Source: a bacterium
GTDB taxonomy: Bacteria > Patescibacteriota > Minisyncoccia > Phycocordibacterales > Phycocordibacteraceae
DNA length: 64,000 bases
Assembly: GCA_021778295.1 (NCBI GenBank)
Contig: JAJYCP010000001.1
Span: 66,513 to 130,512 of the forward strand
Reading direction: 5' to 3'
In this document: positions 5,296 through 64,000 of the stretch, piece by piece
Position numbering within the stretch: the first letter of the stretch is position 1
How the letters are laid out: the number at the start of each line of letters is the position of its first letter
Translations under genes and position numbers: made by a program
The notes under the pieces: model-generated
What the model saw: the letters and a program-made list of their open reading frames with translations, nothing else
The model's database searches: none
What the model was told of the DNA's origin: nothing

Positions 5296-5623
5296 GCGAT
5301 GCGCTCTTGGGAGGGCTTCCTGCATCATACGCCAGTGCAAAGATGTTGTTATGGAGGGCATGCGTAGCTGTTCGCGTTGCTCGCTGACTTCGGGAATGTT
5401 TCCCCTCGGGCGTTCGTTCGAAATTTCCTTTCCAAACTCACTTCTGAGGACGCACCAGACCCTTTTTTCTTACCGGTCGTATAACGGTCTTGTCTCGAGC
5501 AGGGAAGCATCCCGTGCTCCTGCTATTTGTATTTTTAGACTTACGTGGTATAACCCCTAACGGTTAGCCAAAGATTTTTGGCGGCCAGGACGTTCCTTTC
5601 ACTTTGTTCTTGAGAGGTGAAGC

Positions 5624-10205: not shown

Positions 10206-10280
10206 ACGAACCTCCTCACCAGTGGGTGCGTCGGATTATACCGCAGTAACCTGCGTTTGCCACGCGTCCTACACGAGCGT

Positions 10281-18044: not shown

Positions 18045-18061
18045 CCATAAGCTTAATTATC

Positions 18062-19623: not shown

Positions 19624-19780
19624 ATTGGCACAACAGGCGGAAACTCACTTCGCCCATTTGTTGTCACATACTAGCAACAGTATTCAATATAAGCAAGCAA
19701 CTACGGGCTTAGAGGTGAGGCAGTCCATTCTGACATTTTTACCCTCATTTCGATCTTCTTTCGAAAATAGTTGTTAATTG

Positions 19781-19876
19781 TTGACAACATTCTCCTCTTG
19801 GACAAACTACCCATAGACTGTTCTTTGTCATGGATTGTCCGTGACCAGGGTAACAGTTGCTTTGTGGAGATGTGTG
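19781..19876 (+). promoter_or_regulatory. Promoter plus conserved 5' leader, module copy B.
   Basis: TTGACA(19781)-N16-CAAACT-N6-AGACTGTTCTTTG...GGTAACAGTT...GGAGATG. Same spacing to the ATG as copy A. Confidence 0.5.
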
Positions 19877-20461
19877 ATGAAACACATTCATCATGAATTA
19901 CCGTGGGGTAGCAATTCTTCTCCAGTCCTTGCAATCGGCGGCGGTGATGGCGGTTGTTATCAGAAAATCCAGGCGCTCGATTTGGAACCCATCATGGTCA
20001 AACTCATGGATCCGGTCGAGGGTGAAGGATGGACCCTTGAGCAGGTGCGCGAGACGGAGGTCTGGTACAAGCGGTTTCTGTACCTCAACGCCGTCTATCC
20101 AGATCGCTCAATCGTGCCGACTCATGCTATTGACTCGTTCTGGCACTACCACATCCTCGACACGCTGAAGTATGCTGAGGACTGCCAGATCGCGTTCGGC
20201 TACTTCCTGCACCATTTCCCGTACTTCGGTATGCGCGGTGACGAAGACCAACAGAACCTCCTGGATGCGAGCGAGCAGACTTGGGATCTGTTTCGCGAAC
20301 ACTTCAACGAAGAACCGGTAATCCTGCACGGAGATGTGAGCAAATGCGTTAAATCGTGCACTGGCAAAACATGTTCTCATTGCAAGGCTCCAACCTGTTC
20401 CAGTGGTCCGAAGGTGCGGAGCAACGAACGTCCGCGACTGGCTGTTGCGGTGGCCGTGTAG
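19877..20461 (+). CDS. Glycine-rich-domain-protein-like (DUF1399-like) protein with a Cys-rich C-terminal tail.
   Basis: Motif AIDSFWHYHILDTLKYAEDCQIAFGYFLHHFP. Tail CVKSCTGKTCSHCKAPTCSS. SD GGAG lies before ATG 19877. Confidence 0.45.
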   Translation: MKHIHHELPWGSNSSPVLAIGGGDGGCYQKIQALDLEPIMVKLMDPVEGEGWTLEQVRETEVWYKRFLYLNAVYPDRSIVPTHAIDSFWHYHILDTLKYAEDCQIAFGYFLHHFPYFGMRGDEDQQNLLDASEQTWDLFREHFNEEPVILHGDVSKCVKSCTGKTCSHCKAPTCSSGPKVRSNERPRLAVAVAV

Positions 20462-20522
20462 CTATACCGCTAAGTGGCGCGGCAAGACTCAATGAGAGGC
20501 CGGAGATTTTTCCGGCCTCTTT

Positions 20523-21404
20523 TTATTTTAGAAAAGCATCGAACCAGTTAACAATTTCTTGATCCACTTGTGTCTCGTATTCTTCTAATGCATGTGTACC
20601 CCGTGGATATGCTATGAGCTTGAAATCACGGAAATGTCCAGCTGCTTTTTCTGCAAACCGAAATGCTTCGCGTGAGTCAACGCGCCAATCTGCCATTCCA
20701 CACAACACTAAAAGTGGCACAGCACGCGGAATCTCTTTATACCAATAGATGACTGAACGTTTTTTCTTTTCTTCACGTGAACCACCAAACATTTTCTGAA
20801 AATGTTTTCTCATTTCTGGACGGTATGTCTCCTGGAAAAACAAATCGGTAGGGCCAGATACAACAACCGCAGCGCGTACCCATCTTGTTTTCTGAAGCGT
20901 GCGATACGTCATAATACCTCCGCGGCTAAAGCCATACATGCCGATTTTCTTTGTATCGCAAAAAGATAGTCCTGCGATAATTTTTTTTAGATTTATCACA
21001 TCATGAAGATCCAAACCACCCATCTCATCAACGCCTTCACCTCCAGCAACACCAGAATATTGAGATGCGATAACGACATAGCCAGCGCGCGCGAGCGCGG
21101 CAATAGTGCCAGTAAATAACCATCCGATTCGAATTGCGCCAAATTCACCACTACCGCCACGGTTGTACACTACAGTCGGTGCGCGAGCAGTATGTTTCTT
21201 TGGTACAACTATATAGCCCACAACCGCATGGCCTTGAGAAGTGTAAGTGAATCGGTAAGCGGTCATATACTTCTGGTTCTTTTTCACTTCAACGGAAAAG
21301 TCTTGACCGAATCGAGCCCGGAGTTCTCTGGTTATAACGATTTTTCTTACCTCGCGCACGATTGGGACTTTCATAAGATCGCGCAACACAAGATCATCTT
21401 TCAT
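20523..21404 (-). CDS. Alpha/beta-hydrolase of the S9 peptidase/dienelactone-hydrolase type.
   Basis: Nucleophile elbow GFSRGG with downstream Asp and His. 293 aa. TATAGT sits 6 nt before ATG. Low GC. Confidence 0.65.
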   Translation of the reverse strand: MKDDLVLRDLMKVPIVREVRKIVITRELRARFGQDFSVEVKKNQKYMTAYRFTYTSQGHAVVGYIVVPKKHTARAPTVVYNRGGSGEFGAIRIGWLFTGTIAALARAGYVVIASQYSGVAGGEGVDEMGGLDLHDVINLKKIIAGLSFCDTKKIGMYGFSRGGIMTYRTLQKTRWVRAAVVVSGPTDLFFQETYRPEMRKHFQKMFGGSREEKKKRSVIYWYKEIPRAVPLLVLCGMADWRVDSREAFRFAEKAAGHFRDFKLIAYPRGTHALEEYETQVDQEIVNWFDAFLK

Positions 21405-21449
21405 AATAACTATATGCTAGCAGGGTATAAAATCAGTGTCTATCTCCGG

Positions 21450-21480
21450 TAATTACTACTACTAATAGTAGTAGTAATTA
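21450..21480. promoter_or_regulatory. Perfect 31-bp palindrome TAATTACTACTACTA-A-TAGTAGTAGTAATTA (candidate operator).
   Basis: Read directly from the sequence. Lies about 45 bp upstream of the hydrolase start, in a 400-bp AT-rich intergenic region. Confidence 0.35.
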
Positions 21481-21803
21481 ATAGGAACAGGAGTCCAAAA
21501 ATGGATCCGCCAAGCTGTATTCTCCAAGGACTAGGGAGTTTGAGAATCATTGAGAAAAGTTTTAACCGTATACTACACAGGTAGCAGTATCCGACGATCA
21601 GTGTAGTGGTCACGAAGGTTCAACAGGCGGCGGTAACGGAACAAGGGGCAAATAATCTGATGTTCCCATTAGGCTGGTAGTTGAAAAATCAACTACTCAT
21701 ACCCCGAGTGTTTCCGAATAATGAAACACCTGAGGATTAACGAGGTTAGCATTTCTTAAATCAGTTATAATGGAACTATGGGGGTTTTCTTAACCCAACG
21801 AAT

Positions 21804-22865
21804 ATGGTTCCCGATAACACAATTCTTCTTGAAATTCTGCGAGATGCTTGTCGAGCTCCCTCTGGTGATAATGTTCAGCCGTGGCGTTTCCGGTGGGACG
21901 GCTTGACACTATCCCTCTACAACATCCCTGGCATCCATAACTCATACCTTGATTTTGAAGAACGTGGCGCATATATCGCACATGGTGCGCTCCTCGAGAA
22001 CCTCGCGATTGCCGCCCCACATTACGGCTACAACGTCTCGATAATGCTCTTCCCGGATCAGGGGATGCCCGACCTTGTCGCACGCGTCGCCTTTGCGCCT
22101 AGCGCTACATATGACGACCCGCTGTATGCGAGCATTCAGAGACGCGCAACAAACCGTCGACCGTATGCATCACGCGCACTTGCGTCCGATGCACGTGCCG
22201 CGCTCAAGGACGTTGCGATGCCTGAGGGTATGACGCTCGTTCTCATTGAAGATGCTGCAAAAAGAGAGACGCTCGCGCCGCATATAAGCGCAATCGAGCA
22301 GCTCTTGCTCGGCCATGCGGCTCTGTCGAGCGCATTTTTCGCTCATATCGTGTGGACGAAGCGTGAAGAACGTGCGAGACGTAGCGGATTCTACGTAAAA
22401 ACCATGGAGTTCAATCCAGTGCAGGCATTCGTATTCAAGCTCGCGAGTAAGCCCTGGCTTATGCGCGCGTTCCGCAAACTTGGGCTCCCCGCACTCATTG
22501 CGAGTGAAGATGCTAAGATATATGGGGGAGGCTCGGCACTCGGGGGACTGTATGCGCCAGACTTTTCCAAAACCAGCGCACTTGCGCTCGGACGTGCACT
22601 TGAGCGCGTATGGCTTACTGCGACGACGCACGGACTCGCGTTCCAACCACTCTTCGGTACCACCATGATGGGGTACAAGTCGCGCCGCGGCGAAGCGATG
22701 TTCCTCTCGGATGCGGAACGTGCCGCCATTGAAGTAAGCGCGCTCTCTCTTGAGACGGCATTCAGAAATACGCGCGATACACCGACGCTCATCTTCCGTG
22801 TCGGCTATGCCCAGGAACCGAGTGCGTATACGTCTCGGAAGGAACCGAACATAGTTTATAATTAG
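21804..22865 (+). CDS. Nitroreductase-family protein (tandem/large form).
   Basis: N-terminal SGDNVQPWRF nitroreductase motif. A second nitroreductase-like half gives 353 aa in total. Confidence 0.65.
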   Translation: MVPDNTILLEILRDACRAPSGDNVQPWRFRWDGLTLSLYNIPGIHNSYLDFEERGAYIAHGALLENLAIAAPHYGYNVSIMLFPDQGMPDLVARVAFAPSATYDDPLYASIQRRATNRRPYASRALASDARAALKDVAMPEGMTLVLIEDAAKRETLAPHISAIEQLLLGHAALSSAFFAHIVWTKREERARRSGFYVKTMEFNPVQAFVFKLASKPWLMRAFRKLGLPALIASEDAKIYGGGSALGGLYAPDFSKTSALALGRALERVWLTATTHGLAFQPLFGTTMMGYKSRRGEAMFLSDAERAAIEVSALSLETAFRNTRDTPTLIFRVGYAQEPSAYTSRKEPNIVYN

Positions 22866-22872: not shown

Positions 22873-24471
22873 ATGGGTGCCCTTGCGAATTTTGATCTCT
22901 TGTCGGTGGGCGTTGCCATCGCGGGCACGCTTGTGCTCGGGTTCGTCATTTATTTCACAGACCAGAAGAGCAGTACGAACCGCATTTTCTTCGCGTTCGC
23001 ATTCGTCACCGCAATATGGGGCTTGCTCAACTATCTCAGTTATCGCGTCGAAGATCTATCCATCGCGTTCGCACTCCTACGCTTCGAACTCGCGCTCGCC
23101 GTGTGGCAAACGTTCATAATTTTTCGACTCCTGCTCATCTTTCCGGATCACAACGACACGCTTCCACGGCGCTATCTGCTCGCGCTTGTCGTGTACACGG
23201 GCGTCATATCCGTGCTGTGCCTTACGCCGTTCGTCTTCGAGCGTATCACTGCAGTTACCGCCACTGGGTATATCAAAGACATAGCCGTCGGGCCGGCAAT
23301 CGCGCTCTTCGGCGTCACAAGTATAGGGTTCGTCCTTGCAGGATGGGTAGTGTGCGCCCGAAAGACGTTCCGCCTCATGGGCACACAGCGTGCGCAAACG
23401 GGATTCTTCCTGCTCGGAGCGATTACGATGTTCTTGCCAATCATCATCCTGAACTTCATCTTCCCAGCATTCTTGCGGGATTCGAGGTTCGTTCCGTACG
23501 GTGCGGTCTCGATATTCCCGTTCGTACTGTTCACGTCCTACGCAATCCTGCGTTTCCATTTGTTCAACATCAAGGTCATCACGACTTCCATACTCGTATT
23601 CGTGCTTTCCGTCGTTTCATTTGGCCAGGTCCTTTTCTCGGATACGTTGCCTACGATGCTGTTCCAGACAAGCGTTTTCGTCCTCGTCCTCGTCTTCGGC
23701 ATCAATCTGATACGGAGCGTCATACGCGAAGTAGAGCAACGAGAGAAAATACAGAAGCTCGCCGAGGAGCTCGCGGCGACCAACGAGCGACAGGAGACGC
23801 TGATTCACTTCATCGGGCACGAAGTCAAAGGGTTCCTGGCCAAGGACGCAGGCGCGTTCACTTCGCTTGTTGACGGCGATTTTGGCGTATTGCCCGGGGA
23901 ATTGAAACCGCTTGTGGAACGCGCGCTCGTTGAGACGCGGCAGGGCGTTGCGTCGGTGGAGGCTCTCCTAAAGGCGGCAAACTTGAAGAAAGGGACCGTA
24001 ACGTATACAAAAGCGCCGTTTGACCTCAAAGAGCTCGTTGCGGGGGCCGTAGAGAAAGAGAGGCCTGCGGCTGAGAACAAAGGGCTCGCGCTCTCGTTTA
24101 CAGCCGACGACGCGTCGTACCAAATGACGGGGGATAAGGGGCAAATCAACGACCACGTCCTGCGCAACCTCATAGATAACGCTGTCAATTACACGCCATC
24201 GGGCTCGATTGCAGTATCGCTCAGGCGCGAGGGCGACAAGCTCGTGTTCGCAGTGAAAGACAGTGGCGTCGGCATCACCGACGAAGACAAGCAGCGTCTT
24301 TTCACCGAGGGCGGCCACGGCAAGGATTCGCAGAAGGTGAATGTCCATTCCACCGGCTATGGTCTTTACATCGCAAAGCAGATAGTCGAGGCGCACGGCG
24401 GCACCATCCGCGCCGAGTCTGAAGGGCAGGGCAAGGGCTCGACGTTTATCGCAGAATTTCCGGCCCAGTAA
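22873..24471 (+). CDS. Sensor histidine kinase with a multi-TM N-terminal sensor.
   Basis: About 7 TM helices. H-box HFIGHEVKG. N box NLIDNAVNYT. G1 DSGVGI. G2 GYGLYIAKQIVEAHGG. No response regulator adjacent. Confidence 0.8.
   Translation: MGALANFDLLSVGVAIAGTLVLGFVIYFTDQKSSTNRIFFAFAFVTAIWGLLNYLSYRVEDLSIAFALLRFELALAVWQTFIIFRLLLIFPDHNDTLPRRYLLALVVYTGVISVLCLTPFVFERITAVTATGYIKDIAVGPAIALFGVTSIGFVLAGWVVCARKTFRLMGTQRAQTGFFLLGAITMFLPIIILNFIFPAFLRDSRFVPYGAVSIFPFVLFTSYAILRFHLFNIKVITTSILVFVLSVVSFGQVLFSDTLPTMLFQTSVFVLVLVFGINLIRSVIREVEQREKIQKLAEELAATNERQETLIHFIGHEVKGFLAKDAGAFTSLVDGDFGVLPGELKPLVERALVETRQGVASVEALLKAANLKKGTVTYTKAPFDLKELVAGAVEKERPAAENKGLALSFTADDASYQMTGDKGQINDHVLRNLIDNAVNYTPSGSIAVSLRREGDKLVFAVKDSGVGITDEDKQRLFTEGGHGKDSQKVNVHSTGYGLYIAKQIVEAHGGTIRAESEGQGKGSTFIAEFPAQ
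24398..24461. repeat. 64-bp direct repeat, copy 1 (last 21 codons of the HK gene).
   Basis: Identical to 26573..26636 (gcggcaccatccgcgccgagtctgaagggcagggcaagggctcgacgtttatcgcagaatttcc). Confidence 0.85.
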
Positions 24472-26532: not shown

Positions 26533-26572
26533 GCGTAACCGAGGAAGTGTCGGTCCTGATGTGGAACACACA

Positions 26573-26636
26573 GCGGCACCATCCGCGCCGAGTCTGAAGG
26601 GCAGGGCAAGGGCTCGACGTTTATCGCAGAATTTCC
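26573..26636. repeat. 64-bp direct repeat, copy 2 (orphan HK 3'-end fragment).
   Basis: Identical to 24398..24461. In the HK frame it encodes GTIRAESEGQGKGSTFIAEFP followed by AG*. Confidence 0.85.
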
Positions 26637-26732
26637 TGCGGGATAGATTCAAAGAATCTCGTGCCCCGGCCTGATTCAGGCGCTTTTGATTTGCAAAACA
26701 AAATAGTGCTACAGTATGGGAATTAGCAGATA

Positions 26733-27030: not shown

Positions 27031-27078
27031 TCTTTAAAGCACAACACCCGCCAAGTGGCGGGTGTTGTGCTTTAAAGC
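27031..27078. terminator. Bidirectional rho-independent terminator.
   Basis: AAAGCACAACACCCGCC-AAGT-GGCGGGTGTTGTGCTTT. Confidence 0.7.
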
Positions 27079-29724: not shown

Positions 29725-30551
29725 GTGCTCTGCCGGTAGGGCATCTCGCGTTTACCCTCGGGGATAATGCGTTCGATGATGAATCGTCCATCCTTGAAAG
29801 ATGCTTGCGTTATTTTTATGCGTTTCTCATGCTCAAAGAAATACGTGCCGATGGTGTCGGCGTAGGCGCGATACTTGTTCCAATTCTCTTCCGCCGGAGC
29901 ATCGAGCGAAAGCAATCCATCCTCTTTCTTCCGTTTCGGCGCGCGCGTGGCGCGCGACGCGTCCTGCGGGGTGAGCGTGATCTCGCCGCGTAGAAATGCG
30001 GGGAGAATATCGGCGAGCATCTGCGCGCCCAGGGCGATAAGCCGGGGACGAAGCTCGCGCGCCGTTTCCTCGGGCGCTATGGCCGTCTCTTTTTGCGCGA
30101 GGATGGCACCGGCATCGAGTTCGTACGCCATCTTTTGAATGGTGACGCCGGTCACTGCGTCGCCTGCAAGAAGCGCCGCCTCAAGCGGCGCCGCGCCGCG
30201 GTATTTCGGCAAAAGCGAATAATGGATATTCAGTACGCCCTTGGGGAAAGCGGCTATGAGCGATTCGGGAAATATTTTGCCGTACGCAACAACAACCGCA
30301 TAGTCGCATGCGAGGGCGCGTATCGCCGCAACCGCCGTATCATCAAGTTTCTCCGGCGTCATCACACTGATGTCCCGCTTAAGCGCCGTCGTCTTTACCG
30401 GCGAGGGCGTAAGCGTGAGGCCGCGCCCTTGCGGCGCGTCCGGAGAAGTCACTACGGCACGGGGAATGAAGCCGCGCTCGATGAGAATCGCGAGCGTGTC
30501 GCGCGCGACTTCCGGCGTGCCGAAATAGACAAAATTATGCGTCGGGTTCAT
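29721..30551 (-). CDS. fmt: Methionyl-tRNA formyltransferase.
   Basis: FVYFGTPEVA, HYSLLPKYRGAAP, and a C-terminal domain. ATG at 30551. Confidence 0.85.
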   Translation of the reverse strand: MNPTHNFVYFGTPEVARDTLAILIERGFIPRAVVTSPDAPQGRGLTLTPSPVKTTALKRDISVMTPEKLDDTAVAAIRALACDYAVVVAYGKIFPESLIAAFPKGVLNIHYSLLPKYRGAAPLEAALLAGDAVTGVTIQKMAYELDAGAILAQKETAIAPEETARELRPRLIALGAQMLADILPAFLRGEITLTPQDASRATRAPKRKKEDGLLSLDAPAEENWNKYRAYADTIGTYFFEHEKRIKITQASFKDGRFIIERIIPEGKREMPYRQST

Positions 30552-31065
30552 GGGGGATACGGACGAGGTTCTCGGCATGGTCAATAAAGAGCGTACCATT
30601 CAAATGATCCATTTCGTGCTCGAATATCTGCGCCAGGAGGCCGCTTGCGCCGCGTTCAAACGAGGAACCGTCCGGGCGCCGTGCGCGCACGGTGACCCGC
30701 TCATGCCGCAGTGCTGTGCCGTACACCCCGCGGACCGAGAGACATCCTTCCTCAGCATGCGCGCGTTTGCGCGAAGTCTTTACGATTTTAGGATTGATGT
30801 ACACCGCTACCTCTGCGGCAGGGCGGGGAGAAGATTCGCTCGGTTGAACGGGGGAGGGAAGCGTGCGGTCGTTGCGTACGATAAAAAGACGATAGGAAAC
30901 GCCAATTTGCGGGGCGGCGAGCGCAACGCCCTCAGGCTCGCGGTCGAGAGATTCCTCCATGTCGGCGATAAGGCGTGTGAGTTCTGCGCTGCCGAACAGC
31001 TCCTCTGGCACCGGCGCGGCCGTTTCGCGCAGCACCGGCGCTCCGTCCTGTACGATTTCTTTCAT
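30535..31065 (-). CDS. def: Peptide deformylase.
   Basis: Motifs GVALAAPQIG, EGCLS, QIFEHEMDHLNG. ATG at 31065. Overlaps the fmt start (def-fmt operon). Confidence 0.85.
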   Translation of the reverse strand: MKEIVQDGAPVLRETAAPVPEELFGSAELTRLIADMEESLDREPEGVALAAPQIGVSYRLFIVRNDRTLPSPVQPSESSPRPAAEVAVYINPKIVKTSRKRAHAEEGCLSVRGVYGTALRHERVTVRARRPDGSSFERGASGLLAQIFEHEMDHLNGTLFIDHAENLVRIPHEPDA

Positions 31066-31169
31066 ACGACTGCGCAGAATCGTGCCGCGCAATTGTCCAT
31101 TGAACGGCTCCCTTCTGAATTATTCATCATGCGTACATCATACACTCCGAGACGGATTTCGTGCGATTA

Positions 31170-31320
31170 GAACCCGTTTCAAACCCCCGCCTCCCCTGCG
31201 AAGGGTGTGCGGCGGAAAGAGGCTTACGGAGCCCGACGGGGCGAGTACGAGCCGCTTTTCGAGCACGAAAAGACGGCGTACTCCTTTCCGTTGCATACCC
31301 TTCGCAGGGGCTTGATGTGG
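31170..31320. repeat. MITE/REP-like palindromic element, copy A.
   Basis: Starts GAACCCGTTTCAAACCCCC. Has the internal imperfect palindrome GAGTACGAGCCGCTTTTCGAGCACGAAAAGACGGCGTACTC shared with the copies at 41527, 53103 and 62789. Abuts the stop of the 31322 gene. Confidence 0.7.
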
Positions 31321-31321
31321 C

Positions 31322-31615
31322 CTAGTGTTTTTTCGGGTCAAGCTCCCACCAGAATTTTTTGCTGAAATTTTTTGCCTGGCTACACACGCTCTTGAGGTAA
31401 TAAAGATCCGCAGTCGGGATGCCCTCAATTTCGGCGCCGAGGCGCGCCATCGTAAGCGGAGCCAGGCCGTCCTGCTTGCGGGAATAATTCAAATGACGAA
31501 GAAAAAAACGCATCAATTCTCCACGCTCTGTCTCGCGTTTCCGTCCTTTCGGCGCCGCCGCCGCTTTTTTCTCGATGTCGGGGAGAATATCGCGGATGGG
31601 TTTCATCCCGTTCAT
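31322..31615 (-). CDS. Hypothetical protein (97 aa), co-oriented between murA and def.
   Basis: ORF with codon usage like its neighbours. No recognisable domain. Confidence 0.4.
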   Translation of the reverse strand: MNGMKPIRDILPDIEKKAAAAPKGRKRETERGELMRFFLRHLNYSRKQDGLAPLTMARLGAEIEGIPTADLYYLKSVCSQAKNFSKKFWWELDPKKH

Positions 31616-33022: not shown

Positions 33023-34048
33023 ATGCCTCTCTTTTCTCCAAAGCTCGGTATCGACCTCGGGACGACCAATGTCCTCGTGTTCGTGCCGGGCAAGGGCGTC
33101 GTGATAAACGAGCCTTCGGTTGTCGCGGTGAGCAAGGCACATGGCAAGCACGGTGGCAACAAGATCCTTGCCATCGGTGCGGAAGCGAAACGGATGGTGG
33201 GCCGCACGCCCGACGACATCATCGCGTATCGTCCCATGAAAGACGGCGTCATCGCCGATTACCGCGTGACTGAAGCGATGCTGCGCTATTTCATGCGCAA
33301 AGCGCTCGGCAAAAACCCGTTCAAACCGACCGTGCTCGTTTCGGTTCCGGCGGGCGTGTCTTCAACCGAGAAACGCGCCGTCATCGAAGCGGCGATGAAA
33401 GCGGGCGCAAAAAACGCATTCGTGGTGAAAGAGCCGATACTCGCGGCTATCGGCGCGGGCATCCCCATTCATGAACCTATGGGGCGGATGGTGGTGGATA
33501 TCGGCGGCGGTACGATAGACGTCGCGGTGATCTCGCTTGGCGGCATCGTCGCTTCGACGTCCGTGAAATGCGCCGGCGATCGCCTCGACCGTGCGATTAC
33601 CGATCACGTCAAGAAGCAATACAATCTCGCCATCGGCGATAAAACTGCGGAAGAGATGAAGATAAAAATCGGCGCGGCGGTGCCGCTGAACGAAGAACTC
33701 ACGCTTGCGGTCAAGGGGCGTGACCTTATTTCCGGCTTGCCGCGCACCGTCGATGTCTCAACCAATGATCTCGTGCAGGCGATGGCGCGGGAATTGCGCG
33801 AAATGACGCAAGCGATACGCAAGGTCCTCCAGGATACGCCGCCGGAACTCGCCGCCGACATCATCGATAACGGCATCATCCTTACCGGCGGCTCCTCGCA
33901 GCTGCGCCAGATGCCGGAACTTGTGTACCGCCGCACGGGCGTCGTCGCCAAACTCGCGCAGGATCCTTACTACTGCGTCGCGCGCGGCACTGGTATCGCG
34001 CTCAAACATTTGAATACGTATCAGAAAAGCATTTTGGCAAAAAAATAG
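33023..34048 (+). CDS. mreB: Rod-shape protein MreB (copy 1).
   Basis: Actin-fold motifs LGIDLGTTN, VVDIGGGTIDVAV, ILTGGSSQL. Divergent from murA. Confidence 0.85.
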   Translation: MPLFSPKLGIDLGTTNVLVFVPGKGVVINEPSVVAVSKAHGKHGGNKILAIGAEAKRMVGRTPDDIIAYRPMKDGVIADYRVTEAMLRYFMRKALGKNPFKPTVLVSVPAGVSSTEKRAVIEAAMKAGAKNAFVVKEPILAAIGAGIPIHEPMGRMVVDIGGGTIDVAVISLGGIVASTSVKCAGDRLDRAITDHVKKQYNLAIGDKTAEEMKIKIGAAVPLNEELTLAVKGRDLISGLPRTVDVSTNDLVQAMARELREMTQAIRKVLQDTPPELAADIIDNGIILTGGSSQLRQMPELVYRRTGVVAKLAQDPYYCVARGTGIALKHLNTYQKSILAKK

Positions 34049-37720: not shown

Positions 37721-38773
37721 ATGGCACGATTTTCAAAAAATTCGCTCTTCAGCAGTGATATCGCGATCGATCTCGGAACGGCGAATACGCTTGTGTACGT
37801 ACGCGGGCGCGGCGTGGTCATAAACGAGCCCTCGGTGGTTGCGGTCAACGATAAGACCAATCAGGTCGTCGCAGTGGGGAAGGAGGCGAAAACGATGCTC
37901 GGCAAAACGCCCGCGCACATCCGTACCGTGCGTCCGTTGCTGCACGGGGTCATCTCCGACTTTGAAGTCACCGAGGAACTTCTCACATACTTCATCAATA
38001 AAGCGCATGGCGGCCACGCGCGGCTATTTGGCCCACGGGTCGTTATCGGCGTACCGACCGGAGTGACCAATGTGCAAAGCCGCGCCGTACGTGATGCGGC
38101 ACGGAATGCCGGCGCGCGCGAAGCGATTATCATTGAAGAAACGGTTGCTGGGGCTATCGGCGCAAAGCTGCCGGTCGCCGAGGCGACCGGCACGATGGTG
38201 CTCGACATCGGCGGCGGCACCACCGATATCGCCGTCATCGCGCTCGGCGGTACGGTTGCAAGCAAGAGTTCGCAGGTTGCCGGTGACAAGCTGAATGAGA
38301 ATATCATCGATTTTGTGCGCAGCGAGTTCAAGCTCGGCATCGGCGAACGGACCGCCGAGGATATAAAAATAGCCATCGGCGCAGTCACGCCGCTTACGGA
38401 AACCCTCACCAAAAGCGTGCGCGGGCGCGACTACGCGACGGGACTTCCGCGCGAAGTGACGCTCACCGACGTACATATCCGCGAAGCCATCGCGCCCTCT
38501 CTTGATGCGCTCATGGACACGATAAAAGAGGTGATAGAAGCAACGCCGCCCGAGCTCCTCTCCGATGTCCTTCAGCATGGCGTCACCGTCTTTGGCGGCG
38601 GAGCGCTCCTGCGCGGTCTGCCGCAGATACTCGCAAAAATGCTCGGTGTGCCGGTAAAAGTGACCCCCGATCCTTTGACTACGGTCGTGCGCGGGGCAGG
38701 CATCGTGACCGAAAATCCGATGCCCTATGTAGATTTTTTCATCGATGAAGAAGATATTCTCAGCGAAGCGTAA
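37721..38773 (+). CDS. mreB: Rod-shape protein MreB (copy 2).
   Basis: Motifs IDLGTANTLVYV, MVLDIGGGTTDIAV, VFGGGALLRGL. Immediately upstream of mreC. Confidence 0.85.
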   Translation: MARFSKNSLFSSDIAIDLGTANTLVYVRGRGVVINEPSVVAVNDKTNQVVAVGKEAKTMLGKTPAHIRTVRPLLHGVISDFEVTEELLTYFINKAHGGHARLFGPRVVIGVPTGVTNVQSRAVRDAARNAGAREAIIIEETVAGAIGAKLPVAEATGTMVLDIGGGTTDIAVIALGGTVASKSSQVAGDKLNENIIDFVRSEFKLGIGERTAEDIKIAIGAVTPLTETLTKSVRGRDYATGLPREVTLTDVHIREAIAPSLDALMDTIKEVIEATPPELLSDVLQHGVTVFGGGALLRGLPQILAKMLGVPVKVTPDPLTTVVRGAGIVTENPMPYVDFFIDEEDILSEA

Positions 38774-39584: not shown

Positions 39585-39835
39585 TGCGCGGCGCGTTCAC
39601 ACTCGCCACGCTCGCTTCGGTCATATTTTTCCCCTGGCCGCTTACCGCCGTCCTCATGCTTGTCTCTTCCCTCGTCGAGCCGCTCGTACCGCTCGCTGCC
39701 GGAATTTTTACCGATACGCTTTATTACACGCCGAAAGCCGGAGTACTACCGTTCTTCACCCTTTTCGGGGCATTGGTAACCGTTGTGGCGCTTCTCGTGC
39801 GTAGTCGGCTTCGAACGGGTATCATCAGAGGATGA
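39581..39835 (+). CDS. mreD: MreD-like small membrane protein.
   Basis: 84 aa, 3 TM helices. ATGA overlaps with mreC and PBP2. Assignment rests on position. Confidence 0.45.
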   Translation: MMRGAFTLATLASVIFFPWPLTAVLMLVSSLVEPLVPLAAGIFTDTLYYTPKAGVLPFFTLFGALVTVVALLVRSRLRTGIIRG

Positions 39836-41526
39836 AATGGCGGCGTACGCGGCGGCGAGATCCTGAGATCGCTCCCGATGAAATATTTCTTGATGCGTCG
39901 AATGCGCCGGATTTTGACCGCGCGCGATTCGAGGGGCGGCTCGAGAAACCGCTTTCGCGCGGAACGTTTCTGACGCTCTCGCTCACGCTCGCGTTTCTGC
40001 TTGGCATCCTCATCATCCGTTCATGGAATCTTGAAATTACCAATGGCGCCGCTTTTGCCGCCGAGAGCGCCCATAACAGCCTCGAAGTGACGACATTGTT
40101 CGCGTCGCGTGGCGTCATCACCGATCGTTACGGAAATATACTTGCCAACAATGTTGCCAAAGCGGACGGCAGCACGATACGCAATTACCCGGTACCTTCT
40201 CTCGGTCAGATCATCGGGTATGTCTCGTATCCGAAGAAAGATTCGCATGGTGTGTATTACGATACGCGCGAAACCGGCATTGCCGGACTTGAAGCGGAGT
40301 ACGATTCATTCCTCGCCGGCACAAACGGCCACATTCTCACCGAGCGGGACGCGTTCGGTAATATCCGTTCAGAAGGAGGTATCATTCCCGCAAAAGACGG
40401 AGGGACGCTCAAACTGTCGATCGACGCGCCGCTTGAACAGCTTTTCGCGCGCGCCATTACGGATGTCGCGCGCAAACAGCACTTTATGGCCGGCGCCGGC
40501 GTCATCATGGACGTACACTCCGGCGCGATACGCGCTATTTTTTCCTATCCGAGCTATGACCCGAACGTCATGGCGAACGGGGGTCCCGCGGCCACCATCA
40601 ACGCCTACAACACCGATCAAGGCTATCCTTTCCTCGACCATGCGGTGCAGGGCGTGTACGCGCCCGGTTCCATTGTGAAGCCGTTTATCGCTTCCGGAGC
40701 GCTCACCGACGGAATCATTACGCCGAGTACCACTATTGACGATCCCGGCTTCCTTTCGCTGCCTGACCCTTATCATCCCGGCAAGACGTTTATCTACAAA
40801 GGGTGGAAAGCGCTCGGCATAGTCGATGTGAGAAAAGCAATCGCCTGGTCCTCGGATGTTTTCTTCTACACGGTCGGCGGCGGCTTCGGAAAACAAAAAG
40901 GCCTTGGCATCGACCGGCTCGACTACTGGTATCGGCAATTCGGTTTCGGGCGGCCGACCGGCATTGATTTGCCGGAAGAGGCAAGCGGACTGGTCCCCAG
41001 TCCCGCATGGAAGGAAAAAACGCTCGGCGAACCGTGGTATCTCGGCGATACATACTTCACGGCAATCGGACAATACTCAATGCAGGTAACGCCACTCCAG
41101 ATAGCGCGCGCCACCGCTGCGATAGCCAACGACGGGAAGCTCTATACTCCGACCTTGCTCGCGGGGCAGACGCCCTCGTATGTGACCGTACCGGTAGCCA
41201 CTTCGACGTTTGCCGTTGTGCGCGAGGGGATGCGCGAAGGTGTGACCGGTGCGCTCGCGCAGGCGATCAACCTCCCGTACGTGAGCGTGGCGGCAAAGAC
41301 CGGTACCGCGCAAACAGGCGTACACAACCAGTATGACAATGCGTGGGTTGAAGGATTTTTCCCATACCATAATCCGCAATACGCCTTTTCGGTCGTACTT
41401 GAACGGGGGCCAAACGGCGCAGGCGAACAGGCGGTGAATGTCATGCGTGAACTTTTCGACTCCCTTCACGCTGCCAACTCGCCCTACGTCGGCGGAACTG
41501 CCACCACCACAGCGCTCGCGCCCTAA
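39832..41526 (+). CDS. mrdA: Penicillin-binding protein 2 (elongation transpeptidase).
   Basis: SxxK GSIVKP, SxN SSD, KTG AKTGTA. N-terminal TM and dimerisation domain. 564 aa. Confidence 0.85.
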   Translation: MKWRRTRRRDPEIAPDEIFLDASNAPDFDRARFEGRLEKPLSRGTFLTLSLTLAFLLGILIIRSWNLEITNGAAFAAESAHNSLEVTTLFASRGVITDRYGNILANNVAKADGSTIRNYPVPSLGQIIGYVSYPKKDSHGVYYDTRETGIAGLEAEYDSFLAGTNGHILTERDAFGNIRSEGGIIPAKDGGTLKLSIDAPLEQLFARAITDVARKQHFMAGAGVIMDVHSGAIRAIFSYPSYDPNVMANGGPAATINAYNTDQGYPFLDHAVQGVYAPGSIVKPFIASGALTDGIITPSTTIDDPGFLSLPDPYHPGKTFIYKGWKALGIVDVRKAIAWSSDVFFYTVGGGFGKQKGLGIDRLDYWYRQFGFGRPTGIDLPEEASGLVPSPAWKEKTLGEPWYLGDTYFTAIGQYSMQVTPLQIARATAAIANDGKLYTPTLLAGQTPSYVTVPVATSTFAVVREGMREGVTGALAQAINLPYVSVAAKTGTAQTGVHNQYDNAWVEGFFPYHNPQYAFSVVLERGPNGAGEQAVNVMRELFDSLHAANSPYVGGTATTTALAP

Positions 41527-41736
41527 AACCCATTTCAAACCCCCGCTCGGGTATGCGACAGAAAGGAGTACGCCGTCTTTTTCTGCTGAAAAAGCGGCTC
41601 GTACTCGTCCCCGTTACCACAGAGAGTACTTCCACGTTTCTAACTCGCTCCGCTCGTAAGAAACGTGTAGTCGCGGGCTCCGAGAGCCTCTTTCTGCCGC
41701 ATACGCCTCGCGGGGAGGTTGGGGTTTGAAATGGGC
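41527..41736. repeat. MITE/REP-like palindromic element, copy B (longest, with terminal inverted repeats).
   Basis: AACCCATTTCAAACCCCC...GGGGTTTGAAATGGGCC termini are reverse complements. The interior carries the family hairpin. Starts at the nucleotide after the mrdA stop. Confidence 0.75.
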
Positions 41737-41801
41737 CTTACCACATTGGCTTGCGCTTCGGACGCCCTCGCGTACAATGTGCGCACCGAGCCCACCTACT
41801 T

Positions 41802-42275
41802 ATGGCAGATGTACAAGATTCCGTCGTCTCACGGGAGAAATTCGATGAGATGGTAAAAGAACTCGAACACCTCAAGACGGTGCGTCGTACCGAGATCGCA
41901 AAAAATCTGGAGTATGCTCGCGCGCTTGGCGACCTTTCGGAAAACGCGGAGTATCAAGAAGCGCGCGACCTGCAGGCCGCAACCGAGGAGCGCATCAAAA
42001 AGCTTGAGGAACTGGTGAAGTACACGAAGATCGTCACTGAAGGCAAAAAGAAAAGCGAAGTCAGTTTCGGTTCGAAAGTGGCGATTAAAAAAGAAGGAAG
42101 TACGGAAATACATGAATACACCATCGTCGGCAGCGAAGAAGTCGACATGCGCGTAAAAAAGCTCTCGCATATTTCACCGCTCGGCGCCGCTCTGATGGGA
42201 AAGAAAAAAGGCGATGTATTCACATTCCAAACCCCCGCCGGCAAGCAGACCTACATCATTGAGAAAGTGAGCTAA
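41802..42275 (+). CDS. greA: Transcription elongation factor GreA.
   Basis: N-terminal coiled coil (LGDLSENAEYQEARD) and a C-terminal FKBP-like domain. ATG at 41802. Confidence 0.85.
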   Translation: MADVQDSVVSREKFDEMVKELEHLKTVRRTEIAKNLEYARALGDLSENAEYQEARDLQAATEERIKKLEELVKYTKIVTEGKKKSEVSFGSKVAIKKEGSTEIHEYTIVGSEEVDMRVKKLSHISPLGAALMGKKKGDVFTFQTPAGKQTYIIEKVS

Positions 42276-42313
42276 GATTTTTCGCCGGCAGGCCGGATGC
42301 TATAGTGATGCGT

Positions 42314-51755: not shown

Positions 51756-53102
51756 TTGTCTTATTTATTTGTCCTAGCAAATTACTCTATGCAAGTAGGG
51801 CGTTGGAATCATCAATCGACAGGCGCGCATTCGCCAAGCGGCGGACGCCCATATTCGCCGCGTCCCTCAAGGCGCGACGGGCCGAGCGGCTCTGGGCGTT
51901 TTGACAATCACGGCGGTTCCGGTCGCGGCGGCTACGGTCGTCGTGGCCGTGCTCCGGTGCGGCGCAAGGGTTTCGGCTCTTTCGGCGAGACGGAGTCTGA
52001 AATCTCAAAGTTCATGAATAAAACGGTCGTCACGACCGAAGAGCCGGTGTTCGTCCCCGAACACAAATTCTCAGATTTTGCGGTACATGAAAGGTTGCAG
52101 AAGAACATAGCCGCAAAGGGCTACGATCTCCCGACGCCTATCCAGGATAAAGCCATCCCGCACGCTCTTTTGGGCCAGGATGTCGTCGGTCTTGCAGAAA
52201 CGGGAACCGGGAAGACGGCTGCCTTCCTCATTCCGCTTATCGATAAGGTTATGAGGCAAAAAGGGGAGCGCATTCTCATTATGGCACCCACCCGCGAGCT
52301 TGCGGTGCAGATTGAAAAAGAGCTTGCCGGTTTCGCAAAAGGTCTCGGGTTCCGCGGCATGGTCGCGGTCGGCGGCGCGAATATCGGACCTCAAATCTCG
52401 ATGCTTCGATATGAACCGGCGTTCGTCATCGGTACCCCCGGGCGCTTGAAGGATCTCATGGAACGCCGTGCGCTCGATCTTTCCGGTTTCGGCACGGTTG
52501 TCCTCGACGAAGCGGATCGCATGCTCGATATGGGTTTCATCGACGATATGCGCGCTATCCTCGGGATGATGCGCAAAGAACGCCACACGCTCTTTTTCTC
52601 CGCAACGATGTCGAAAGATATCGAACGGCTTATCGGCGATTTTCTTTCAAGTCCGGTCATCATCTCGGTAAAAAGACGTGATACTCCTTCAAGCGTCGAT
52701 CAAGATGTCGTCCGCATCCCGCGTGGGAAAGACAAGTTCGATGTGCTTGTCGAACTTCTTAAAAATTCCGACTTCAGCCGCGTGCTTGTCTTCGGCCGTA
52801 CCAAGTTCGGCGTGGAGAAGCTCGCCAAGGCGCTCTCGCGCCTCCACATCCACGCGGAGAGCATCCACGGCAATAAGACGCAGGGCGCGCGCCAGAGAGC
52901 ATTGGAGGCCTTCAAGGCAGGGAAGGTGAGCGTGCTCGTCGCGACCGACGTCGCGGCACGCGGCATTGATATCCCTGCCGTCTCGCACGTCATCAACTAC
53001 GACCTTCCGTCCACCTACGAGGACTACGTGCACCGCATCGGCCGCACCGGCCGCGCGGACAAGAAAGGGAAGGCTCTGACCTTCGTCCAGGAGCGCTACT
53101 AA
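51756..53102 (+). CDS. DEAD-box ATP-dependent RNA helicase with an N-terminal Arg/Gly-rich extension.
   Basis: Q-motif PTPIQ, motif I AETGTGKT, DEAD, SAT, HRIGRTGR. The in-frame upstream RGG-rich region spans 51789-52013. Alternative start at ATG 52014. Confidence 0.85.
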   Translation: MSYLFVLANYSMQVGRWNHQSTGAHSPSGGRPYSPRPSRRDGPSGSGRFDNHGGSGRGGYGRRGRAPVRRKGFGSFGETESEISKFMNKTVVTTEEPVFVPEHKFSDFAVHERLQKNIAAKGYDLPTPIQDKAIPHALLGQDVVGLAETGTGKTAAFLIPLIDKVMRQKGERILIMAPTRELAVQIEKELAGFAKGLGFRGMVAVGGANIGPQISMLRYEPAFVIGTPGRLKDLMERRALDLSGFGTVVLDEADRMLDMGFIDDMRAILGMMRKERHTLFFSATMSKDIERLIGDFLSSPVIISVKRRDTPSSVDQDVVRIPRGKDKFDVLVELLKNSDFSRVLVFGRTKFGVEKLAKALSRLHIHAESIHGNKTQGARQRALEAFKAGKVSVLVATDVAARGIDIPAVSHVINYDLPSTYEDYVHRIGRTGRADKKGKALTFVQERY

Positions 53103-53196
53103 AACCCACCTCAAACCCCCGCTCGGGTATGCGACAGGAAGGAGTACGCCGTCTTTTTCTGCCGCATACGCCTCGCGGGGAAATGTGGGTTTGAGA
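53103..53196. repeat. MITE/REP-like element, copy C (short, internally deleted form).
   Basis: AACCCACCTCAAACCCCCGCTCGGGTATGCGACAG...CTGCCGCATACGCCTCGCGGGGAAATGTGGGTTTGAG. It is copy B with the middle removed. Begins right after the helicase stop. Confidence 0.7.
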
Positions 53197-53209
53197 TGAG
53201 TTCTAGTCT

Positions 53210-53252
53210 ATTTCGCAAAAAAACAACAAGCACCCCGCAGAGGTGCTTTTTG
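53210..53252 (-). terminator. Rho-independent terminator for recR.
   Basis: On the minus strand: AAGCACC-tctgcgg-GGTGCTT followed by GTTGTTTTTTTG. Confidence 0.6.
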
Positions 53253-62149: not shown

Positions 62150-62773
62150 ATGACGAGAAAAGCCGCCGCGCTCCGGCACTTAAAGCAAGCCGATCCTTAT
62201 TTCTACAGGGTGACGAGGTTCCACCATCGTTCCCTCCCGGCGCGTCTTCCTGAGAAGCGTACTCGTGCCGCGCTGTTTGCAGCGCTTGTCTCGATCGTCA
62301 TCGCACAACAGTTGGGGACCGCCGCCGCCGACACTATCCTTGCACGCGTACGGGCGGCATGTCGGGGTCGCCTGACTTCCCTTTCGATCCTCAAAATGAA
62401 GCCCTCGCTTTTTCGTCAAGCCGGGCTTTCGGGTGCGAAGACGAAAACGCTCAAAGCAATCGCCAGCGCAATTGAAAGTGGCACGCTTGATTTACTCGCA
62501 TTGAAAGCACTTCCCGAAACGGAAGCGGCGCGTACGCTTATGAACCTATGGGGTCTCGGTCCGTGGTCAGTTGATATGTTTATGATGTTTGCGCTCGGTC
62601 GCGAAGATGTCTTTTCATCGGGCGATCTCGGCCTCGTCCGCGCGATGGAGGCGATCTATCACCTGCCAAAAGATTCCCCGCGCGGCACGCTCCTTGCAAT
62701 CGCGGGGAAATGGTCCCCGTACCGAACCTACGCGTGCCTCCTCCTTTGGAGAACTCGGGATACGAAGTTTTGA
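62150..62773 (+). CDS. HhH-GPD-family DNA glycosylase (AlkA/3-methyladenine glycosylase II-like).
   Basis: Helix-hairpin-helix LWGLGPWSVDMFMMFALGREDVFSSGDLGL, with the catalytic Asp region. Confidence 0.75.
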   Translation: MTRKAAALRHLKQADPYFYRVTRFHHRSLPARLPEKRTRAALFAALVSIVIAQQLGTAAADTILARVRAACRGRLTSLSILKMKPSLFRQAGLSGAKTKTLKAIASAIESGTLDLLALKALPETEAARTLMNLWGLGPWSVDMFMMFALGREDVFSSGDLGLVRAMEAIYHLPKDSPRGTLLAIAGKWSPYRTYACLLLWRTRDTKF

Positions 62774-62788
62774 TATGAATTTATTAGA

Positions 62789-62938
62789 GAACCCCTCTCA
62801 AAACTCCAGACGACGCGAGGGGTATGCCGCAGGAAAGGGCTCTCGGAGCCTGACGAGGCGAGAGCGAGACGCTTTTTCAGCAGAAAAAGACGGCGTACCT
62901 TTCCTGCGGCATACCCGAGCGGCGTTTTGAAATGGGTT
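62789..62938. repeat. MITE/REP-like element, copy D (inverted orientation relative to copy B).
   Basis: Ends ...GGCGTTTTGAAATGGGTTC, the reverse complement of the GAACCCATTTCAAA terminus. Its interior is the reverse complement of copy B's left half. Fills the gap between the alkA-like stop and the C39-like gene stop. Confidence 0.7.
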
Positions 62939-63952
62939 CTAACGAATAATCACTTTCTCGACTGCATAAATGTTTCTGACGGCATAGTGGCTTGAAAAAC
63001 TGATGTCGTTGCCGTTTGCGACGTACGGATCGCGCATAATGTAATTGCCTCTTTGGCCGCTGACTAAGACCACAAAATGAGTGCCGCCATATGCTCGGAG
63101 TCCGACGATGACCGGATTACCGGTTGAAAGCGTCGCGTCGATCGTCGAGGCTATGCGAGTTGCGGAAATACCGTCCACATACGTCGTGAAAAGGAGGAGT
63201 GCCGGATAATAGGCCGCAAAATTGCTGGGATTTGAATTTATCGTAAGAGGCGTCACATTGCGATACCCATAGTGCGTCAAGACCATTGCCATGGCGGTCA
63301 CAAGACACCCGTCGCTCGCAAAGCGGTATTTCGTACCGTTGATAGGAATATTGCCCCAGAGCGCATCGCGCTGGTTGTAGTAACATCCCCACGCATCGCA
63401 CACGGTTTGATTCGTGAGAAGTTTCGAACCGCCGGCGGCCGTGACGAAAGTCGAAAAGCTTTCCAGTTCCGCTTGCGCTGCTGCAAGAAGTCTTTGGTAA
63501 TTTGATTCGCTGTTTTTTGTCTGCGCGAGCAATTGCTGCTGCGCAATTTTGCTTTCGGTAAGCGATCTGTTTTGGGCGGTCAATTGCGATTGCAAGGACA
63601 GGAGGTTCGTTTTCATCGCGGTTATTTGGCTGCGATTCGCCGCAAGCGTCGTGCGTACGGCGCGTAAATTGCTGATGTTGTTTGCAAGCGCTCTATTGAA
63701 CTGGACGGCGTCATCAACGGCCTGCCACGCATCGCGCAAGGAATTCGAGGAAATGATCATGGCGATGAAAGAAGATTGGTCGTTCTCCGCGACGTTCTGG
63801 AGCGCCTTCCCGATCGCGATCTGATCGGCGGCGATGGACGTTTCCTTGTCGCCCATAGAAAGCGTAAGTTCCCGTATCCGTAAATTAGCGGAATCGATTT
63901 CGTTCTGGGTCATCCTGATTTTTATGGCGAGCTGTTTTTGAGAGAGGGCCAT
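62939..63952 (-). CDS. Coiled-coil protein with a C-terminal C39-like (Peptidase_C39_2) cysteine-peptidase domain.
   Basis: N-terminal 200-aa coiled coil. The C-terminal domain carries the candidate catalytic Cys in DGCLVTAMAMVLTHYGY. The true N-terminus may lie beyond the window end. Confidence 0.6.
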   Translation of the reverse strand: MALSQKQLAIKIRMTQNEIDSANLRIRELTLSMGDKETSIAADQIAIGKALQNVAENDQSSFIAMIISSNSLRDAWQAVDDAVQFNRALANNISNLRAVRTTLAANRSQITAMKTNLLSLQSQLTAQNRSLTESKIAQQQLLAQTKNSESNYQRLLAAAQAELESFSTFVTAAGGSKLLTNQTVCDAWGCYYNQRDALWGNIPINGTKYRFASDGCLVTAMAMVLTHYGYRNVTPLTINSNPSNFAAYYPALLLFTTYVDGISATRIASTIDATLSTGNPVIVGLRAYGGTHFVVLVSGQRGNYIMRDPYVANGNDISFSSHYAVRNIYAVEKVIIR

Positions 63953-64000
63953 CGAGCTGATAGTCGATTGCAGTGTATTTTTCTTCGCAGCGAGTATGTT

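Follow-up and report, generated by a model that had tools for sequence, protein, structure and literature searches.

Why would a family of short palindromic repeats sit, to the nucleotide, on the stop codons of unrelated genes? The question arises from a 64-kb stretch of bacterial DNA (64,000 nucleotides, referred to here as the window), for which an earlier note had described four repeats resembling miniature inverted-repeat elements (MITEs), each beginning or ending within 0-2 nt of a stop codon, and had proposed selection for, or targeting to, transcript 3' ends, with the repeats acting as terminators or RNA-stability elements. All four clearly related stretches (copies A to D) are present where that note had placed them, and 25 further copies were found in two related metagenome-assembled genomes (MAGs).

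A dispersed family of short non-coding repeats

The elements end in terminal inverted repeats (TIRs). An 18-nt TIR motif, AACCCATTTCAAACCCCC, allowing up to three mismatches, has six matches in the window against 0.04 expected, corresponding to both ends of copies A and C and to one end each of copies B and D. When the copies are aligned in a common orientation, the consensus reads CTAG-AACCC...GGGTT-CTAG, with a left end CTAG-AACCCATyTCAAAACCCCCGC and a right end GCGGGGGTTTTGAAATGGGTT-CTAG, and the consensus tips across the family are CTAGAACCC...GGGTTCTAG. The canonical unit is non-coding and about 160 bp long, with the length of copies across the family ranging from 106 to 232 bp.

Each window copy departs from this unit in its own way. 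Copy A (41524..41740, plus strand) carries the core in the reference orientation and has a degenerate right tip (GGGCCTTA); the TAA in its left tip (41524-41526) serves the PBP2/mrdA gene (39832-41526) as stop codon. This copy had been taken as the full-length form of about 210 bp, but it is instead enlarged by a 69-nt extra hairpin module (41608..41676, plus strand) that stands in place of a small GCGYCGTCRCGC hairpin, is not found in the orthologous copy of the MAG DBS1-3.bin101, and recurs at two other loci (L006 7853-8000 and L067). Copy B (31168..31324, minus strand) has a core inverted relative to A; the TAG of one tip (31168-31170) is the stop codon of an open reading frame on the plus strand (30550-31170), and the other tip is degenerate and ends in CTAG (31322-31325). 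Copy C (53100..53205, plus strand) is an internal-deletion derivative of about 106 bp that has lost the stretch separating two short direct repeats, CTTTTTCTGC and CTTTCTGC; its right tip reads GAGTTCTAG, and a DEAD-box helicase gene (51756-53102) has its native stop codon in the tip TAA (53100-53102). Copy D (62785..62941, minus strand) lies between convergent genes, with the TAG of one tip (62941-62939 on the minus strand) ending a minus-strand gene (62939 to 64000 and beyond) and an HhH-GPD gene (62150-62773) ending 12 nt before the other tip. Its core is inverted relative to A, as reported, yet this orientation is not peculiar to D, since the core of B is inverted too. A candidate fifth copy at 42211-42238 was rejected as a chance TTCCAAACCCCC match inside the greA coding sequence.

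When one genome per species was scanned with an exact 22-nt core pattern, 19 stretches were returned for the MAG DBS1-3.bin101 (JAKBHL01) and one for the MAG WY4.bin53. A profile search of those loci and the window yielded 29 copies, most of them ascertained through this exact 22-nt pattern: four in the window, 24 in DBS1-3.bin101, and one in WY4.bin53. All-against-all BLAST of the 29 copies revealed no common flanks except at orthologous loci. Because the flanks are unrelated, a segmental duplication of flanking genes was rejected as the origin of the window copies, and the original description of a dispersed, MITE-like family with TIRs and a nested palindrome is borne out. In the stretches examined, the density is about one copy per 15-25 kb. 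Where the window and DBS1-3.bin101 are syntenic, their DNA is 84-94% identical, which identifies the window as a sister species, and ENA metagenome assemblies contain contigs 100% identical to the window.

The closest named relatives of the helicase beside copy C are from Candidatus Parcubacteria, Paceibacterota, Minisyncoccota, and Kaiserbacteria, so that the host is a bacterium of the candidate phyla radiation (CPR). The coding fraction is about 89% under a rough gene model, in agreement with the small, streamlined genome suspected earlier. Descriptions of CPR and Parcubacteria genomes usually stress streamlining and a scarcity of mobile DNA; here, an abundant MITE family is documented in one of them. 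A literature search found no direct precedent for a stop-codon-targeting MITE or for a MITE in Patescibacteria, and the best-ranked literature on Patescibacteria, the candidate phyla radiation, or Parcubacteria did not use the term "miniature inverted-repeat".

Insertion sites and a probable partner insertion sequence

Across the family, the TAG or TAA of a tip is the exact end of an open frame (125-573 codons) in 17 of the 29 copies, including all four in the window, and several further copies have a stop codon 3-18 nt from a tip. The association with stop codons thus stands, with one correction to the distance of 0-2 nt: the elements extend 3 nt beyond the ends given earlier, and the stop codon is inside the tip or the target duplication. 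The abutting gene is found at the "left" tip in nine copies and at the "right" tip in eight, i.e., without orientation preference. Counting independent copies, 16 of 28 (57%) are exactly on a stop codon, whereas among unoccupied tolerated sites (stop codons and intergenic positions) stop codons represent 20% of CTAG and 28% of YTAR sites, an excess with a P value of about 1e-3 to 2e-5. The enrichment at gene 3' ends is therefore beyond chance, and it holds in the 25 copies found outside of the window. Among the 25 copies with two recognizable neighbours, 16 are located between co-directional genes, nine between convergent genes, and none between divergent genes.

The flanks point to a preferred target. 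Most copies are bordered by YTAR at both ends, and a pyrimidine (C or T) precedes the tip TA at 37 of the 49 metagenomic ends. CTAG itself is under-represented in the window, with 26 occurrences observed for 56 expected. A comparison of left and right tips fits a duplication of TA or of CTAG alike, the copies being old and mutated. Insertion did not truncate the proteins encoded upstream: the helicase beside copy C ends in ...TFVQERY, with the same FVQERY terminus as its homologues. At the corresponding helicase codon, two distant relatives have empty sites that read tac-TAA-atacg (L075) and tat-TAG-tttc (L077), both in a YTAR context, in which the stop codon is followed by an ordinary 40-nt spacer.

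A before-and-after view of such an insertion is provided by a sister MITE of DBS1-3.bin101, 152 nt long, with a similar TIR (GAGCACGTTCAAAAACCCC...) and an unrelated interior (L003 7010-7169). The filled site consists of CTAG, the 152-nt element, and a second CTAG, while the empty syntenic site in WY4.bin53 (L013 3184) contains a single CTAG and reads cccattaCTAGaatcg. In both genomes this TAG terminates the upstream gene (frames of 220 and 301 codons), and the pair thus directly displays an insertion that hit a stop codon and left it in place. As CTAG is palindromic, the flanks of this sister MITE fit a 2-bp (TA) and a 4-bp duplication alike. The TIR of the sister MITE has no match in the window. 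For the family under study, the nearest filled and empty pair is L001 7464-7616 versus window positions 10262-10273, with blurred ends. At strain level, no empty site was found for copies A and D among the contigs reaching them: every metagenome contig reaching the copy A site carries the element, two of these contigs ending inside it, and the single contig extending past the copy D site carries the element as well.

In metagenomes, a search for the 21-nt tip TARAACCCATYTCAAMMCCCC identified 46 loci, and in two of these the tip TAGAACCCATCTCAAAACCCC (21 nt) is found in inverted orientation 835 bp apart (L043 281-1115 and L032 679-1513). In L043, the enclosed 835-bp insertion sequence (IS) includes two overlapping ORFs on the minus strand (564-1061 and 292-693), which match DUF4096 (2e-27) and DDE_Tnp_1 (8e-18) and cover the NCBIfam model transpos_IS5_3 over positions 4-103 and 132-258 (overall 4-258). 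The IS is flanked by TA on both sides, and about twenty other contigs break 120-140 nt inside it, a pattern typical of an IS present in many copies when assemblies are built from short reads. Members of the IS427 group are 832-865 bp long, with two frameshifted ORFs and mostly 2-bp duplications (PMC3281130). The 835-bp IS appears to fit this group of the IS5 family in size, ORF layout, domains, and TA flanks, an assignment made by size, architecture, and the NCBIfam transpos_IS5_3 match. The window elements differ from the IS427 group in that they carry no transposase. The closest homologue of the IS transposase (77% identity) is labelled Ca. Saccharimonadales, another CPR lineage, and the IS with identical ends comes from contigs of other organisms. 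A tblastn search for the partner transposase gave no match in the window or in loci L001-L019 (about 150 kb of sister genomes), and the partner in the host genome thus remains unseen.

The repeats are short, lack a transposase gene, are dispersed, and have TIRs in common with an autonomous IS of about 800-900 bp, which itself displays the two overlapping ORFs and the DDE_Tnp_1 domain with N-terminal DUF4096 of an IS5/IS427-type partner. The family is a prokaryotic MITE with IS5-family ends, i.e., a known kind of element, here in Parcubacteria. The reading we favour, with a probability of roughly 0.78, is that these are non-autonomous MITEs with IS427-group-like ends that have been moved in trans and have accumulated on stop codons. 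Under this scenario, an IS5/IS427-type transposase supplied in trans would cut and paste the element into (C/T)TA(G/A) sites, with a preference for CTAG, and either TA or the whole tetranucleotide would be duplicated; an IS5-related MITE inserting at CTAG or YTAA has been documented (PMC3189936). The duplicated target, or TA together with the first base of the element (G or A), would then re-create TAG or TAA, so that the upstream protein would stay intact when the element enters a stop codon at its TA. Other YTAR sites would be mostly in genes and promoter regions of this gene-dense genome, from which insertions would be purged, and copies would consequently accumulate exactly on stop codons, in either orientation.

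Target preference, regeneration of the stop codon, and purifying selection would together account for the placement of the family, and offer a mechanistic reason for its nucleotide-exact character: for a transposase preferring CTAG or YTAR in a gene-dense genome, TAG and TAA are the safest sites, and the insertion rebuilds them. It is likely that the same type of transposase as encoded by the 835-bp IS moved the family, and that purifying selection at other sites produced the pattern now observed. The remaining excess of about two-fold over tolerated sites is expected if insertions on the 5' side of genes were purged as well, an additional selection that this account has to assume.

A structured and conserved core

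On either strand, the predicted RNA folds of the elements are long hairpins of high stability. Copy A folds at -97.9 kcal/mol (z = -6.7), and the best-preserved copy (L001 2573-2747) folds at -98.8 kcal/mol (z = -10.7), with an about equal value for its other strand (z = -10.9). A terminator scan of positions 41000-42300 returned no site, and the element tip offers only GGGG-TTT(T)-GAAAT, with no intrinsic-terminator hairpin directly before the U-run. Downstream of copy C, and outside of the element, a hairpin followed by a T-run (gcaccccgcagaggtgc ttttt; 53230..53251, plus strand) represents a canonical terminator, so that here the MITE lies within a 3' UTR and the terminator is a separate structure. 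The core is in sense orientation in 10 and in antisense orientation in six of the 16 co-directional contexts, which, like the nine versus eight distribution of abutting tips, shows no orientation bias. Searches against Rfam 15 at the gathering score found only two tRNAs in the window, those with copy A at E<=10 found nothing, and those with a canonical copy returned noise only (best score of 19.8 bits versus a gathering score of 80). Since target preference, stop regeneration, and purging explain the placement, selection for terminators or RNA stability is not needed to account for the 3'-end enrichment, although such a role is possible as a side effect of the element.

The interior of the element evolves differently from its ends. 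Identity among DBS1-3 paralogues amounts to 90-92% over the 100-nt core (still 90% when the positions of the ascertainment pattern are left out), but to only 52-60% over the tips. Between species, orthologous cores are 95-96% identical versus 78-80% at third codon positions of adjacent genes, and orthologous tips are about 70-75% identical. Double compensatory changes are seen in nine of the 33 predicted core pairs, and few pairs are broken, whereas the two tips of one copy match each other only marginally better than they match the tips of other copies (-27.9 versus -26.2 kcal/mol, a value equalled or bettered in 840 of 20000 permutations). A core that changes about four-fold more slowly than synonymous sites is not predicted by a purely selfish, decaying MITE. 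The explanation of the stop-codon association is largely demonstrated, and the constrained, structured core is the one property that it leaves unexplained.

Gene conversion appears to contribute to this pattern. The core loop reads GAG in window copies A and D and in the L067 copy, and TAA in all DBS1-3 copies, so that orthologous cores carry the variant of their own genome, which points to conversion. Coalescent reasoning indicates that unbiased conversion alone cannot push between-species divergence below the neutral level, which implies some constraint on the core through selection, or through gene conversion combined with selection, at the level of the host or of the element. The core may represent a selected, structure-dependent module (GGGTATGCGACAGAAAGGAGTACGCCGTC...CTTTCTGCCGCATACC) kept by a Parcubacteria lineage at about 25-30 gene ends, although we consider this unlikely; candidate roles include a strand-symmetric 3'-UTR hairpin for stability or processing, or a DNA-level site for protein binding or recombination. 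If true, a selected core would explain its slow change relative to synonymous sites, the neutral decay of the tips, and the compensatory stems, and the conserved core provides a lead towards a possible lineage-specific structured element.

The alternative that survives best is a domesticated 3'-UTR element, in which the copies or their core would be kept by the host for mRNA stability, for attenuation or termination, or as an RNase III or protein site. We regard it as possible but improbable, and a domesticated role for the core specifically as doubtful; it would recall reports on REP, ERIC, and Correia/NEMIS elements and is compatible with a MITE origin, and both can be true together. The conserved core next to diverged tips, the orthologous core identity above that of third codon positions, the compensatory changes, the stability of the hairpins on both strands, and the location of all copies 3' of genes would each be expected from host use, and NEMIS hairpins are described in a review as RNase III substrates (PMC2229807). 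Several observations speak against it, including the lack of orientation preference of the core, the absence of Rfam matches and of a terminator-like site, and the separate terminator downstream of copy C. Copy C has in addition lost its core, and its sister-species orthologue has a different centre. Copy number is labile, as indicated by the single exact core match in WY4.bin53 versus 19 stretches in DBS1-3.bin101. Template switching in quasi-palindromes can also produce compensatory changes, and the sample was partly ascertained through the core pattern itself.

A two-layer origin, in which a younger, separately mobile or converting core with its arms would have colonized older IS5-type MITE shells, seems to us a good deal less plausible. 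It would make the tips older than the centres, consistent with the far greater divergence of the tips, and would allow orthologous shells to hold the core in opposite orientations. One such case is known: the orthologous copies at L003 5755-5909 and L013 1927-2086 have the same flanks and the same derived tip mutations, and the whole interior is inverted. Orthologous cores also resemble the paralogues of their own genome, as seen for the GAG and TAA loops, and different centres can occupy the same shell, with a distinct centre in L074 and modular inserts in L008, L012, L016, and L018. Yet searches of the window and the loci turned up no empty shell (a TIR pair without core), a core-only unit has no definable ends or target duplication, and inversion by recombination between the arms together with gene conversion accounts for these observations without invoking a second means of movement. 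The L003/L013 inversion fits either a flip by recombination between the arms or a replacement of the interior.

For the MITE family as we read it, orthologous copies also provide an estimate of relative age. Copy A is orthologous to L007 5511-5662, the copy C site is occupied in DBS1-3.bin101 as well (with another long hairpin as its centre and without the right TIR), and the L003 and L013 copies form a further orthologous pair. Because these insertion sites are common to different species, the family predates those species. Two DBS1-3.bin101 copies have no window counterpart: L001 7464-7616, and the best-preserved copy, L001 2579-2741, in place of which the window has 1.9 kb of other DNA (3636-5521). 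With tips decaying at an approximately neutral rate and sites shared between species, the family looks largely inactive.

The copies are nonetheless still recombining or converting among themselves, and appear to act as recombination substrates, with flipped cores and hybrid copies at synteny breaks. In contigs from other samples, the same PBP2 gene (99.8-99.9% identical) is followed by the left part of copy A and then by a different right arm. Downstream of this left part, one contig (L067) encodes a 310-aa gene, SerRS, and DprA, while another (L068) has a different flank resembling that of L018. These alternative junctions reflect either rearrangement at MITE copies or chimeric assembly at a repeat. 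Recombination at the copies bears both on how MAGs of these organisms assemble and on the plasticity of their genomes.

Comparison with known mobile repeats

Other transposase families were considered as the source of the ends. IS630-family elements likewise duplicate TA, and some favour CTAG. An IS630/Tc1-mariner-type MITE comparable to RUP, for which RUP and IS630-Spn1 offer a precedent (PMC2229807), would thus fit the TA and CTAG flanks, but is very unlikely because the sole autonomous element found with these exact ends encodes DDE_Tnp_1 and DUF4096 and not an IS630-type transposase (DDE_3). REP/REPIN-type palindromes moved by a RAYT (Y1, IS200/IS605-like) transposase, which would likewise be palindromic, extragenic, just after stop codons, and tipped by a tetranucleotide, can be dismissed almost entirely, given a tip of CTAG and not GTAG, true TIRs of 20 nt or more identical to those of a DDE IS, a target duplication visible in the sister MITE, and a unit of about 160 bp that is much larger than a REP.

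The closest known counterpart of the IS5-type MITE family described here is MITEPsy1 of Pseudomonas syringae, which is related to ISPsy2. Both are short and non-coding, have TIRs in common with an IS5-family IS, use a CTAG/YTAR-type target (CTAG or YTAA for MITEPsy1) with a short duplication, in the window family a probable one, and are dispersed as copies with unrelated flanks. Unlike MITEPsy1, the family resides in a CPR/Parcubacteria host, includes a 100-nt structured core unrelated to the IS, has most copies exactly on stop codons, combines decayed tips with a conserved core, and has no partner IS seen in the same genome. Palindromy over the whole length and a position at gene 3' ends are also typical of Correia/NEMIS (Neisseria), ERIC (enterobacteria), and RUP (pneumococcus). 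These are imperfect palindromes of 100-170 bp that insert at TA, are often co-transcribed as part of gene 3' ends, and have RNA hairpins that can be processed (PMC2229807). The window family differs from these in having no sequence similarity to them, a different transposase lineage (RUP being linked to IS630), and no identified IHF site or promoter, and its integration of the stop codon into the tip is far more systematic.

REP/BIME of gamma-proteobacteria are palindromes located just downstream of stop codons inside operons, for which mRNA-stabilizing roles have been proposed. They resemble the window family in this placement, and differ from it in their length of about 35 nt, their GTAG tip, their lack of TIRs and target duplications, and their mobilization by RAYT. 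Finally, in IS870, of the IS630 family, the transposase ORF acquires a complete stop codon only through the CTAG target. In both cases a CTAG target yields a TAG stop at the element border, but the stop codon serves a host gene in the window family, whose ends are of IS5 type, and the transposase gene in IS870.

Alternative junctions and inverted or extended copies of the main MITE

Alternative junctions at copy A, the MITE whose left tip provides the stop codon of the PBP2 gene, were found in two contigs from other samples, at L067 4805-4915 and L068 4845-4915 (compared with window 41640-41760). Both contigs carry a PBP2 gene 99.8-99.9% identical to that of the window, together with the left part of copy A, whereas the right arm and the downstream genes differ and, unlike in the window, greA does not come next. 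Downstream of the junction, one contig continues into a 310-aa gene, SerRS and DprA, and the other into a flank resembling that of L018, a sister-species locus. Either MITE copies have recombined with one another here, or the assemblies are chimeric at the repeat.

A change of orientation was observed between the two sister species. The copies at L003 5755-5909 (DBS1-3.bin101) and L013 1927-2086 (WY4.bin53) are orthologous, with common flanks and common derived tip mutations (TGAAAC in place of TAGAAC), and their entire asymmetric interior lies in opposite orientation between the species while still being ~96% identical.

Longer variants occur at four sister-species loci (L008 831-1009, L012 2237-2468, L016 7744-7928, and L018 3451-3630), with extra hairpin modules, one of them CTCCTAAGATGACATCTTAGGAG, located between the right arm and the right TIR; the L018 variant has an AT-rich insert. 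The family appears to grow via modular hairpin insertions. The best-preserved copy, each end of which has a perfect CTAG tip, is found in DBS1-3.bin101 (L001 2574-2752), at the position of a 1.9-kb window stretch (3636-5521) that is without counterpart in that genome and contains two minus-strand ORFs (3626-4783 and 4762-5361).

A second MITE family and the scarcity of CTAG

DBS1-3.bin101 also carries a second MITE family, represented by a 152-nt element (L003 7010-7169) with TIRs GAGCACGTTCAAAAACCCC / GGGGTTTCAGACAGGCTC and an interior unrelated to the main family. Its target is a CTAG that provides the upstream gene with its stop codon. The sister species WY4.bin53 has the corresponding empty site (L013 3184-3187), and a search of the window for this family returned 0 copies. 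CTAG is strongly under-represented in the window, with 26 occurrences against ~56 expected from trinucleotides and against 170-400 for other 4-nt palindromes, and about half of the 26 sites are intragenic.

An IS5-family element with the same TIRs

An 835-bp IS5-family IS with TIRs identical to those of the main MITE was identified in two metagenome contigs (L043 281-1115 and L032 679-1513). It is multicopy in some metagenomes, in which assemblies are broken ~120-140 nt inside its ends, as in many WNGL01 contig ends (L022, L024, L026-L030, L037, L038, L040, L048, L051, L053-L055, and L063). In L043, the upstream ORF stops on the TAG of the IS tip, and the flanks read tac-TA-c, which suggests that this insertion split a Tyr codon and would thus represent a gene disruption.

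Other repeats, paralogues and base composition in the window

The two copies of a 71-nt direct repeat (24394-24464 and 26569-26639; 97% identical, 2175 nt apart) resemble conserved 3' ends in a pair of paralogous genes, with a similarity far above that of the remaining paralogue pairs in the window. Two mreB-like paralogues (33045-33552 and 37761-38259, 4.7 kb apart) are ~73-74% identical in DNA, the second being a member of the mreBCD-PBP2 operon. An inverted repeat at 27032-27077, in which perfect 22-nt arms enclose a 2-nt spacer (CTTTAAAGCACAACACCCGCCA / TGGCGGGTGTTGTGCTTTAAAG), is unrelated to the MITE family. At 2868-2969, a 48-54-nt unit duplicated in tandem (94% identical) encodes an acidic repeat rich in Glu/Asp. 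G+C drops locally to 43-47% at 18001-22000, compared to 51-60% in the rest of the window.
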